From Chlamydiia bacterium (GTDB lineage Bacteria; Chlamydiota; Chlamydiia; Chlamydiales; Rhabdochlamydiaceae), in assembly GCA_963804085.1 (NCBI GenBank), contig CAWDOQ010000019.1, positions 288,001 to 352,000 on the forward strand: DNA of 64,000 nt, in the 5' to 3' direction. A model generated the notes under the pieces. It saw only the letters and a list, made by a program, of their open reading frames with translations, had not been told where the DNA came from and did no database searches. The position numbers were made by a program, and so were the translations under genes. Shown here piece after piece: positions 57,975 through 58,975 of the stretch. The stretch's first letter is position 1; every line of letters begins with the position of its first letter.

Positions 57975-58164
57975 CAACGGACGGGGCCCCCACGGACACA
58001 CGGACTAGAGCGGACTTGCACGGACGAACTACGGACAAAAACGGACAAGGGCCCCAAAGAATAGCTAGCTCTTTGTCCGTTGGCCCCCGTCCCTTTACGT
58101 CTATTGTTCGTCCGTGTTTTGTCCGTAAAAGTCCGAGCGTCCGTTGGGGCCTCTTCCAAATTGG
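57975..58164. repeat. ~190-bp ACGGAC/GTCCGT palindromic element, left direct-repeat copy
   Basis: 7 CGGAC units, core GGCCCCAAAGAATAGCTAGCTCTTT, 7 GTCCGT-like units, end GGGGCCTCTTCCAAATTGG. Confidence 0.95.
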
Positions 58165-58252
58165 AGGTAGAGAGACGTGTTAAATTTTTCTATGGGATAA
58201 ATAAAAAAGTTTTTGTAGATTTGCTTCGTTTTGCCTTAACGAGAGATGCAAA

Positions 58253-58819
58253 ATGGATAGCTTGATTCCAAAACATGGAGGCTTTCGCAAACTGAAAACT
58301 TTTCAGCTTGCGCGGCTTGTCTATGACATTACTATGCGGTTCTGTGACCGGTATATCAAAGGCCGTACTCACGATCAGATGGTTCAGGCCGCTCGCTCGG
58401 GGGTCCAGAACATTGCCGAGGGCAGCCAAGCTTCGGGAACTTCGAAAAAGACAGAGCTCAAGCTGACTAATGTGGCGCGCGCAAGCCTTGAAGAGTTGCG
58501 GCTGGACTATGAAGATTTTCTGAGGCAGCGACGGGCTTTGCCGATGGGATGATTTTGATCCGCGACGAAAACAAATCGCCACGCAGCGTATCGATAGCGC
58601 AGATCAATTTGCTTTATGGGCAAAGAAGACCGCACGTAAAGAAGAGGAGATTGCAGAAACTGCCGCCAACGGGATGCTCGCGCTTCTCTCTATGACTTGC
58701 CGTTTTCTCGACCGACAACTAGCTGCGCAAGGAGAGGCATTCAGAAAGAAGGCGGCTTTACTGAGCGGCTTTATCGTATGAGAAAACAACGGACGGGCCC
58801 CCACGGACGCACGGACTAG
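58253..58819 (+). CDS. Four-helix-bundle protein with suffix domain (TIGR04258-like); two apparent frameshifts, intact status uncertain
   Basis: HGGFRKLKTFQ, RTHDQMVQAARSGVQNIAEGS, ARASLEELRLDYEDFLRQ; then ETAANGMLALL...LDRQL and EGGFTERLYRMR in shifted frames (shifts near 58530 and 58745); stop lies inside the right repeat. Confidence 0.8.
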
Positions 58820-58975
58820 AGAACGGACTTGCACGGACGAACAACGGACTAAAACGGACGGGCCCCAAAGAATAGCTAGCTCTTTATCCGTCGGCTCCCG
58901 TCCGTTTACGTCCATTGTTCGTCCGTGTTTTGTCCGTGCAAGTCCGTGCGTCCGTTGGGGCCTCTTCCAAATTGG
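58787..58975. repeat. ~190-bp ACGGAC/GTCCGT palindromic element, right direct-repeat copy
   Basis: Colinear with 57975-58164, with scattered substitutions and small indels. Confidence 0.95.

Follow-up and report, generated by a model that had tools for sequence, protein, structure and literature searches.

One of the closest described systems is the partnership of REPIN/REP elements with a RAYT gene (Bertels and Rainey 2011, PMC3116915; PMC3337134). It shares with our locus short hairpin repeats, tens of them, scattered in intergenic DNA, a gene present in few copies that has such a repeat at its own flanks, with each paralogue having its own flavour, lineage-specific insertion sites without a consistent target duplication, and the possibility of gene-less repeat populations. 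There are also differences. The RAYT is a Y1/HUH transposase (IS200/IS605-like), whereas the partner here is a four-helix-bundle protein; instead of a REP doublet there are 5-7 phased boxes of 5-6 nt per arm; the array here lies inside the coding region of its partner in many phyla, and the gene occurs across many phyla at high identity.

Leptospira carries an ORF-bearing intervening sequence (IVS) in its 23S rRNA. In Coxiella burnetii the 23S rRNA IVS bears the S23p ORF and is reported to be excised by RNase III (PMC4990558). The IVS resembles our locus in the protein superfamily (PF05635), in its compact form with one gene and self-complementary boundaries, and in behaving as a selfish, horizontally acquired insert. 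It differs in position (helix 25 or 45 of the rRNA, whereas our gene has a DUF5674 gene and a membrane-protein gene as neighbours), in having one enclosing stem rather than a complete palindrome behind the gene (here also before it), and in its arms, which are contiguous complementary sequence instead of phased boxes with spacers. Moreover, gene-less copies have proliferated here.

An integron gene cassette is a promoter-poor ORF with a 3′ imperfect palindrome, attC. Here too there is one promoter-poor ORF, with an imperfect palindrome behind it that overlaps its end, and tandem cassettes would likewise give palindrome-ORF-palindrome, but our palindromes are far longer, consist of phased boxes and also stand singly across the genome. 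Diversity-generating retroelements have an accessory four-helix-bundle protein, Avd, which forms a basic pentamer and binds both nucleic acid and an enzyme partner. Avd belongs to the same fold family, and nucleic-acid recognition by this family is therefore plausible; unlike our protein it has no suffix domain, and our locus has no template/variable repeats. PF05635 is mentioned in PMC10053308. We rejected a diversity-generating retroelement here, since a search for reverse transcriptase (PF00078) found none in this genome or in the related genome G031 and did match in control genomes.

Our search of the published literature found no description of a gene plus GGAC-array module. The phrase "four helix bundle suffix" was not found, TIGR04258 and TIGR02436 appeared in none of the matches listed, and nothing relevant on palindromic repeats of Chlamydiae was among the matches listed.

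Layout of the palindrome-bracketed gene

The window, that is the whole stretch of 64,000 nt analysed, comes from a Chlamydiia genome (G000) assembled in 24 contigs with 5% contamination. Its features around the locus are as follows.

51466..51605, gene-less palindrome, A[C/T]GGAC with period 10-11, valS on one side and a YgjP-like gene on the other
55627..56063, minus strand, plain four-helix-bundle gene (PF05635, 78.6 bits) flanked by inverted GTGCCC-type hexamer arrays
57199-57522, 107-aa ORF to the left of the DUF5674 gene
57531..57878, minus strand, DUF5674 gene, left neighbour
57933..57934, no strand, left breakpoint of the variable segment
57961..58180, no strand, left palindrome copy: 7 CGGAC boxes (57978-58050), loop, GTCCG arm (58073-58160) and a "gene-linked" tail of ~35 nt that is a small hairpin
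58238..58978, plus strand, conserved cassette unit made up of 15 nt, the gene and its 3′ palindrome
58253..58819, plus strand, four-helix-bundle and suffix-domain gene (TIGR02436 and TIGR04258) in three frame segments
58773..58978, no strand, right palindrome copy: 7 CGGAC and 5-7 GTCCG boxes
58981..59367, minus strand, small membrane-protein gene, right neighbour, weak LiaF-TM match

The two palindromes form direct repeats around the gene. The first-pass annotation had estimated them at ~190 bp; they measure 205 bp (57961-58167 and 58773-58978), lie 811-813 bp apart and are 83-100% identical block by block (repeat search, four families), and a MAFFT alignment gives 89% identity over ~210 nt including flanks. 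In both, the boxes are spaced 10-11 bp apart. Each copy contains seven CGGAC boxes as had been described, but only five exact GTCCG boxes plus two degenerate ones, so the proposed "7+7" count holds only if worn units are included. The C-terminal tail is encoded by the first 45 nt of the right palindrome, and the stop TAG (58817-58819) indeed lies within this copy once the frameshifts are read through. The tail of the right palindrome is truncated after CCAAATTGG, and the membrane-protein gene that follows is convergent with the four-helix-bundle gene. The gene-less relative, earlier placed at 51453-51610, was found again at 51466-51605. The cassette at 55.6 kb has 39-nt inverted hexamer arms (55627-55665 and 56019-56057) that are 92% complementary, and all four plain four-helix-bundle genes of the genome lie between inverted GC-rich hexamer arrays.

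The region 58253-58549 matches TIGR02436 with 39.3 bits (cut-off 24) and PF05635 with 36.2 bits (cut-off 33.8). The TIGR04258 suffix is spread over two frames, in pieces of 32.7 and 20.9 bits that each fall below the cut-off of 40; the intact ortholog P0068 (86% nucleotide identity) scores 59.9 bits. The reading frame of the window gene is not intact: compared with intact relatives it has one extra base at ~58531 and one C missing after 58741. These two frameshifts, suspected from the beginning, are real in the assembly, but they are absent from G031, and of the public sequencing runs X1 lacks both and X3 lacks one. They may be errors rather than true mutations; if they are real, the copy in this assembly would be inactive.

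The family is large, with at least 8000 cluster representatives (E ≤ 1e-5), and the best 120 matches listed are 61-99% identical to the query and come from different phyla. The AF2 model of the protein has a pLDDT of 88.7. Among PDB structures it is closest to 2GSC and 2RLD, crystal entries of PF05635 with five chains (probability 0.98-1.0, weak E-values of 0.03-0.07, every Foldseek E-value being above 0.001), and a sequence search for a solved structure of the protein found none. The protein is probably oligomeric like its crystallised relatives. PADLOC gave no match for the proteins.

The conserved unit and the left palindrome

Is the palindrome on both sides of the gene an original feature of this arrangement? 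The unit 58238-58978 is 86% identical over 741 nt to positions C2:1681119-1681859 of G031, a related Chlamydiales genome; in the housekeeping genes on either side, identity between the two genomes is 74% (trpS) and 68% (uvrA). The G031 copy lies in another genomic context, has an intact gene and no 5′ palindrome, and the G031 site syntenic to our locus is without the entire 57.2-59.0-kb block, including the DUF5674 gene and the 107-aa ORF. Both paralogues of G031 are intact, each with a single 3′ palindrome of its own flavour and none at the 5′ side. Palindrome-gene-palindrome is therefore not the basic architecture; as judged from these alignments, the conserved unit is the gene plus one 3′ palindrome, with the gene's stop and tail inside the palindrome in both genomes.

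The short tail hairpin is common to both window copies and to the gene-linked copy of G031, and three solo copies are without it. We infer that the left palindrome is a second copy of the gene-linked type, secondary in origin; the collapsed form in contig C7 and run X4 and the recurrence of the layout in the MAG L028, both described below, also speak for this. It may have come from a tandem second cassette whose gene was later lost, or from recombination of a gene-plus-palindrome copy with a palindrome already in place. The gene could be deleted again if the two copies recombined.

The first-pass annotation had proposed recombination between the direct repeats as a plausible route to the dispersed copies. 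In this model palindrome-gene-palindrome would be a canonical excisable cassette, with homologous recombination removing the gene and the dispersed "empty" palindromes being its scars. The direct repeats of ~205 bp with 89% identity agree with this, as does the independent recurrence of the same layout in an unrelated genome, a Thermoanaerobaculia MAG (L028). The locus is also polymorphic. In contig C7 of the same assembly, a second haplotype of the locus, and in a 151-nt contig of run X4, position 57933 is joined to 58756-58793 (the 3′ end of the gene) and then to 58145-58175 (the tail), so that 822 bp are skipped. This form is not the predicted product of excision, because the palindrome interior is missing: 38 nt of the 3′ end of the gene and a collapsed palindrome remain at the left position, and in C7 3.3 kb of other DNA follows. 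No single-palindrome allele and no unambiguous circle junction was found in four public DNA runs (6-15% of sampled words), and a search for RNA runs with this stretch listed none. A joint in X1 that goes back 803 was rejected as a circle, being explained by the likeness of the two copies. With only 2 TIGR04258 and 6 TIGR02436 matches in the whole genome, none of the other ~43 palindromes has a gene remnant, and the gene-linked tail is absent from solo copies. Excision at this locus cannot account for the copies elsewhere, and with both intact G031 genes having a 3′ palindrome only, we regard the excisable cassette as quite unlikely.

Mis-assembly of repeats, producing both the duplication and the frameshifts, would fit the 24 contigs, the contamination and the second haplotype, as well as the frameshift of the C7 paralogue, which falls in seven consecutive A as read errors typically do. 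However, an independent 817-nt contig of run X1, from a relative ~95% identical, spans palindrome, gene and palindrome in the same layout. The duplication is not an artefact in this comparison, and an overall artefact is extremely unlikely. The C7 haplotype is rearranged at the gene-less palindrome 51466..51605 too, and the locus is a rearrangement hot spot where other repeat families are also present.

GGAC arrays beside suffix-type genes and across genomes

A decisive point set beforehand was the presence of GGAC-periodic flanks at homologs of the suffix subfamily. They are there: of 80 suffix-type loci, drawn from many phyla, 72 have GGAC/GTCC-phased arrays (ORF ± 300 bp), with a density of 1.45 per kb at the loci vs 0.031 per kb at distances of more than 600 bp, a 46-fold difference. 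Their position varies across phyla; they lie upstream of the gene, inside the coding region or behind it. Five genomes were sampled in other phyla, and in four of them the arrays are at the gene only, while a gammaproteobacterial symbiont (G035) with one gene has 407 pattern matches vs 35 for the control.

How specific is the pairing of protein and motif? In two Chlamydiales genomes an ACGGAC palindrome of period 10-11 accompanies the ACGGAC-type gene, and a GTGGAC palindrome of period 9 accompanies its paralogue, including that of C7. The pairing suggested earlier is upheld by this match of flavours, by the subfamily's own repeat type and by the 72 loci, but not at the level of residues: no alignment column was common to the four proteins of the ACGGAC period-10 type and present in less than 15% of the other 74, and no residue tracking the flavour across phyla was found.

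Arrays were counted genome-wide as YGGAC-N3-8-YGGAC-N3-8-YGGAC, with the pattern read backwards as the control. There are 211 matches in our genome (4 for the control) and 105 in G031, whereas 27 of 30 searched relatives have 0-2. Our genome has 45 head-to-head palindromes and 20 single arrays, vs only one tail-to-tail pair. Of the palindromes, 41 of 45 are intergenic, though ORFs of at least 120 aa cover 89% of the genome. We examined 40 element sites of G031; 16 have syntenic flanks in our genome, and none of these 16 carries an array there, which was scored as presence or absence without fixing insertion borders, the flanks being 65-80% identical. The longest direct repeats from flank to flank are distributed like those of mismatched flanks, with 15 nt and 10 nt as the only outliers. 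Unlike in a MITE, no fixed-length target-site duplication exceeds this control, nor does any consistent one define an insertion mechanism.

In a sample of 300 Chlamydiota genomes, 9 of 19 with TIGR04258 are array-rich (at least 40 matches per genome), vs 2 of 281 without it; these counts overstate the evidence because related genomes are not independent. The nine genomes are distributed over five families. Some observations count against a gene-plus-array module. Ten of the 19 gene-bearing genomes are not array-rich, six of them with 0-2 matches. Neither the family model nor P0068 found a suffix gene in two array-rich genomes, G141 (233 matches, 98% complete, ~60 palindromes of the exact window type) and G256 (251 matches), nor in G292 with its moderate 24 matches. 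Furthermore, the palindrome type of the window has 22 copies in our genome although the window gene is frameshifted.

These array-rich genomes without the gene would suit an ordinary REP/MITE-like repeat, moved by an unrelated host or insertion-sequence enzyme, that landed by coincidence on both sides of an unrelated small gene; so would the dispersal of the mostly gene-less repeat and the nature of the locus as a hot spot with other repeat families. Against this stand the stop codon and tail within the palindrome in two genomes, the arrays at 72 of 80 homologous loci with their local enrichment, and the contrast between 9 of 19 and 2 of 281. There is also no target duplication and no matching transposase. 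A RAYT reading was rejected, since the sole PF01797 gene of our genome (C17:57827-58168) is flanked by unrelated inverted repeats; 5 GGAC-type words occur in 3.3 kb around it, and no PF01797 (Y1 transposase) match was found in G031. We hold a chance neighbourhood of repeat and gene to be very unlikely.

Hairpins, a candidate module and its meaning

The predicted hairpins are very stable. The right copy as RNA reaches -116.9 kcal/mol (z -10.4, equalled by 0 of 200 shuffles), the left copy as DNA -49.4 kcal/mol (z -5.5), and a terminator-like tail hairpin follows downstream of the palindrome. The element could therefore act at the RNA level, its long transcript hairpin being a processing site, a terminator or a stabiliser, with GGAC phasing incidental and not read by the protein. 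In agreement with this, 13 of 45 elements lie between convergent genes, vs 17% of all spacers, and the plain four-helix-bundle genes of our genome are bracketed by stems like rRNA intervening sequences, for which excision by RNase III is documented in Coxiella (PMC4990558). But 10 of 45 elements lie between divergent genes, and in many phyla the arrays are within the coding region. In the GTGGAC type, mirror symmetry is confined to the boxes, and 45 of 86 spacer pairs are unequal between the arms when compared copy by copy; box identity and phasing have thus been kept, and not the integrity of the stem. Covariation in this type amounts to 14 predicted box pairs with one compensatory change, in an alignment scrambled by shuffled units. 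Rfam has no family matching the palindromes, and no rRNA match was found in 51000-60000. A purely RNA-level role seems unlikely to us; it would be compatible with binding of the protein to the RNA form.

We lean slightly towards a gene-plus-array module, in which the array would spread by analogy with REPINs and their RAYT gene, but with a partner that is not a transposase and without a known transposase chemistry. In this single-gene module the last codons and stop of the gene reach into the array. Its phased GGAC boxes, which together can form a hairpin, are here ACGGAC at intervals of 10-11 bp with about 7 in each arm, and the short tail hairpin comes after them. The protein would recognise the phased boxes, gene and array together making a self-recognising selfish module, and the gene-less palindromes would be non-autonomous derivatives that depend on the module or at least originated from it. 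A broader reading is possible but doubtful: suffix-domain proteins may in general be sequence-specific partners of GGAC arrays, forming a hitherto unrecognised class of mobile modules that spans phyla, in which the protein directs or licenses the copying of hairpins into intergenic sites.

Few bacterial proteins of unknown function are as common as those of PF05635/TIGR04258. The suffix subfamily is now tied to a candidate partner among nucleic acids, the GGAC boxes with their phasing of 9-11 bp, and genome-wide multiplication of the arrays is almost confined to gene-bearing genomes, so that a hypothesis of binding and mobilisation can take the place of "function unknown". Translated repeat arrays also account for many of the odd tails and inserts of low complexity that annotated proteins show. 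The module would stand beside REPIN-RAYT as a second kind of palindromic repeat population associated with a gene. If the broader reading is true, it would be a REPIN/RAYT-like symbiosis with new chemistry, built on a protein without a known nuclease or transposase fold, and the large "23S rRNA intervening-sequence protein" superfamily would for the first time be assigned a function.

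The palindromes and the gene of the window

The suffix-type gene, a four-helix bundle (TIGR02436/PF05635) with the C-terminal suffix domain TIGR04258, lies between two direct repeats, as the first-pass annotation had proposed; each measures about 205 bp, where the annotation gave ~190 bp. The gene-less relative that it had placed at 51453-51610 is also present, and the hexamer-armed cassette at 55.6 kb, which carries a gene of the plain type (bundle alone), is as it had been described.

Features of the window
51466-51605, gene-less palindrome
55627-56063, plain four-helix-bundle cassette with hexamer arms
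57961-58167, left palindrome copy (direct repeat of ~205 bp)
58773-58978, right palindrome copy (direct repeat of ~205 bp)

A repeat search places the two copies 811-813 bp apart with 83-100% identity per block, and gapped alignment, flanks included, gives 89%. Each copy is an imperfect palindrome, with CGGAC boxes (mostly ACGGAC) spaced by 8-15 bp, mostly 10-11, in the left arm, a loop of about 25 nt and a GTCCG arm. The structure of seven plus seven boxes suggested earlier holds for the seven CGGAC boxes, but the right arm has only five exact GTCCG boxes and two worn ones. The right copy forms an almost uninterrupted hairpin of 75 bp (RNA, -116.9 kcal/mol, z -10.4), and folding of the left copy is weaker (DNA, -49.4 kcal/mol, z -5.5). 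Residues 1-99 of the gene product (58253-58549) match TIGR02436 and PF05635 above cut-offs, while the suffix domain follows the bundle in two other frame segments. When read through, the protein terminates at TAG 58817-58819, behind the right copy's third ACGGAC box, inside the repeat as had been noted.

Is this duplication an artefact of assembly? In the public sequencing run X1 we found an 817-nt contig of a ~95%-identical relative which spans palindrome, gene and palindrome, so the layout in the window is not an artefact. The same contig has one base fewer at 58531 and an additional C after 58741, exactly the two frame changes; the second difference was also seen in a contig of run X3. Thus, both suspected frameshifts are present in the window assembly and absent from X1, and the second is absent from X3. 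The suffix-type ortholog of the sister Chlamydiales genome G031 has an intact reading frame, and in a paralogue on contig C7 of the window assembly the frameshift falls within a run of seven A. The window gene may be broken, its frameshifts being either real or assembly errors.

The AF2 model of the protein is all-helical (pLDDT 88.7), and its closest structures are the PF05635 crystal entries 2GSC and 2RLD (five chains each), with weak E-values. Searching by sequence, we found no solved structure of the protein; PADLOC had no family for the proteins and Rfam none matching the palindromes. In the plain cassette region (52822-56151, minus strand) the ORF list gives one 1109-aa frame running from the plain four-helix-bundle gene through the hexamer array into a Ser/Thr kinase gene. 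The hexamer arrays translate here as Arg-Ala and Gly-His repeats, and because they keep the frames open, automatic gene calls may merge two genes.

The module of gene and 3′ palindrome

At E ≤ 1e-5 the protein search gave at least 8000 cluster representatives, and the best 120 matches listed had 61-99% identity to the query. Among the matches listed is P0068, the intact G031 ortholog, whose C-terminal peptide is a translation of ACGGAC boxes. At its locus (L017, on a 2.03-Mb contig of this uncultured Chlamydiales MAG) the gene is followed by one ACGGAC palindrome, with none upstream; the second G031 paralogue (L019) has one GTGGAC palindrome with 9-bp spacing behind it. The G031 copy shares 86% identity with window 58238-58978, a stretch that begins 15 nt ahead of the start codon and extends through the right palindrome, whereas the housekeeping genes trpS and uvrA share only 74% and 68% between the two genomes. 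The syntenic trpS-membrane gene-uvrA site of G031 is without the entire 57.2-59.0-kb block. Because of this 86%-identical unit, the single 3′ palindrome in G031 and the syntenic site without the block, we take the module to be the gene plus its 3′ palindrome; it is placed differently in the two genomes. Behind the palindrome a tail of ~35-45 nt forms a small terminator-like hairpin, common to the G031 copy and the window left copy, partial in the right copy and absent from three solo palindromes elsewhere in the window genome (G000).

A second haplotype bears on the origin of the left copy. The 14.5-kb contig C7 matches window 51640-57937 at 98.4% identity and 58976-59408 at 95%, but the sequence between these two stretches differs. 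At its left breakpoint are 38 nt from the 3′ end of a suffix gene, a palindrome of which only the two ends remain, and then the tail; the following 3.3 kb are other DNA, in which part of the DUF5674 gene is duplicated. The variable part ends on the right with a GTGGAC-type paralogue that has a 3′ palindrome of its own and borders on the same membrane-protein gene as in the window. A 151-nt contig of run X4 has the same left junction. Judging from these junctions, the left position once carried the end of a cassette. Two readings fit the window layout best: a tandem pair of cassettes of which the first has lost its gene, or recombination between a resident palindrome and a gene-plus-palindrome copy. 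The window left copy would in this way be a secondary acquisition, and recombination of left with right copy could delete the gene. Palindrome-gene-palindrome also occurs, independently, at locus L028 of a Thermoanaerobaculia MAG, where both flanking palindromes have a left arm of seven GTGGAC boxes.

Several other features were seen around this site. The DUF5674 gene and a 107-aa ORF form a two-gene block (57199-57878, minus strand), partly duplicated on C7 and missing from the syntenic G031 site, which may be a small mobile pair. Directly behind trpS (57131-57199) lies a ~40-nt inverted repeat, a family distinct from the GGAC palindromes, with many copies in G031, including a run of at least six with a 51-bp period (G031:C2:833261-833619). 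On C7 (11203-12122, against window 51605-51640) ~880 bp are inserted between a YgjP-like gene and the gene-less palindrome; on this haplotype a different dispersed repeat family truncates the palindrome behind the first box. Further haplotype pairs are C1/C3 (98%) and C9/C10 (95%); because of such pairs, consistent with the 5% contamination figure, G000 copy counts include some strain duplicates.

Gene-less palindromes in the two genomes

Our census of G000 comprises 45 head-to-head palindromes and 20 single arrays; a tail-to-tail pair occurs just once. The GTGGAC type at 9 bp accounts for 25 of the palindromes and the CGGAC/ATGGAC types at 10-11 bp for 20 (two overlapping census rows merged). 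Intergenic positions hold 41 of the 45, against 89% of the genome in ORFs of at least 120 aa, with neighbours convergent in 13 cases, tandem in 18 and divergent in 10. Since the genome has only two TIGR04258 and six TIGR02436 matches, the other palindrome copies are without a gene remnant. In the GTGGAC type, spacer sequence on the GGAC strand is rich in A and G, and the spacers of the two arms are out of mirror register, differing in length in 45 of 86 pairs; this type keeps its boxes and phasing rather than a perfect stem.

Flanking direct repeats, sought as target-site duplications, were no longer than in mismatched controls, two outliers aside. These are the GTGGAC-type palindromes G000:C15:40630-40741 and C18:6896-7018, whose TTAA-containing flanking repeats measure 15 nt and 10 nt; nothing of the kind is seen at the other elements, so both may be due to chance or else represent rare target duplications.

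G031 has 105 hits of the pattern of three YGGAC boxes separated by 3-8 nt, against 1 for the same pattern read backwards. Nearly all are of GTGGAC type, and ACGGAC forms an array only at the gene. We fetched 40 G031 element sites; none of the 16 with both flanks syntenic in G000 had an array there, so the copies arose, or turned over, separately in each lineage. Gene-less arrays have thus proliferated lineage by lineage, and the gene-plus-array module occupies unrelated sites.

A diversity-generating retroelement was rejected because reverse transcriptase was found in neither genome. The single Y1 (IS200/IS605-type) transposase gene of G000 (C17:57827-58168, L112) adjoins a tRNA gene and is flanked by a different inverted repeat of its own, ~35 nt long; it resembles a RAYT-style or IS200-style element and seems to have no connection with the GGAC arrays. 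No Y1 gene was found in G031.

Arrays and gene across taxa

We examined 80 homologous loci from Chlamydiota, Desulfobacterota, Verrucomicrobiota, Planctomycetota, Acidobacteriota, Chloroflexota and others, scoring runs of at least three GGAC or GTCC words spaced by 7-15 bp within the open frame ±300 bp. Homologs without GGAC-periodic flanks would have spoken against the proposed link, and at least one array was present at 72 loci; L022, L027, L030, L059, L060, L064, L089 and L095 had none. Array density is 1.45 per kb near the gene (155 in 107 kb) and 0.031 per kb more than 600 bp away in the same loci (8 in 256 kb). Gene and array are linked family-wide.

The commonest array is (G/A)TGGAC at 9 bp; ACGGAC at 10 bp occurs at four loci (L017, L066, L081, L082). 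Arrays lie upstream of the gene, behind it or inside it (in the translated bundle-suffix linker), with GGAC before GTCC nearly always. The pairing of protein subfamily with repeat motif, claimed from the window alone, stands at subfamily level, suffix type going with GGAC phasing and plain type with contiguous hexamer arms, and between orthologous pairs. We found no protein determinant of flavour: in the alignment, the four ACGGAC proteins share no column that sets them apart. At L066, L081, L082 and many other loci, in many phyla, the array between bundle and suffix is coding, giving low-complexity inserts of Gly-Gln-Ser and then Ser-Thr-Lys runs, and C-terminal tails; such inserts and tails account for the family length spread of 181-245 aa.

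At the genome level only counts are given for co-occurrence, as related genomes do not provide independent evidence. Pattern counts were 0-2 in the 30 relatives, except in G024, a genome with tandem coding repeats, G026 (9 against 7 in the control) and G028 (2 against 5), the latter two regarded as at or below controls; TIGR04258 matched only in G000 and G028. In an evenly drawn sample of 301 Chlamydiota genomes, 300 of which were scored for TIGR04258, array-rich genomes (at least 40 hits) are enriched among gene carriers.

Array-rich genomes in the Chlamydiota sample
TIGR04258 found (19 of 300): 9 of 19, in five families, controls 0-5 (G000, G096, G145, G154, G217, G244, G272, G274, G280)
TIGR04258 not found (281): 2 of 281 (G141, 233 hits; G256, 251 hits)

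The other ten gene-bearing genomes had 18-34 hits (four) or 0-2 (six), and G292, without the gene, had 24. A search with P0068 found no suffix-type gene in G141, G256 or G292. G141 (98% complete, same family as G000) has ~60 palindromes of the A[C/T]GGAC 10-11-bp type, e.g., C1:67768-67908; two of its congeners had 0 and 5 hits. Five gene-bearing genomes were sampled outside the phylum, and among them only the Thiosymbion MAG G035 is array-rich (407 hits against 35 in the control); the remaining four have arrays at the gene only. Gene and arrays are strongly associated, but with exceptions both ways, and a genome can be rich in arrays even though no gene is found in it, as G141 and G256 show.

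In the literature we found no published description of the suffix subfamily or its repeats. The closest known systems are REPIN-RAYT (PMC3116915, PMC3337134) and the ORF-bearing intervening sequences of 23S rRNA (PMC4990558). The module lacks what defines each of them: it has no Y1 transposase, and it lies outside rRNA. By analogy, the gene-less palindromes may be non-autonomous derivatives, comparable to REPINs with their RAYT, and the protein would read the phased GGAC boxes, either on duplex DNA or in a hairpin form of DNA or RNA.
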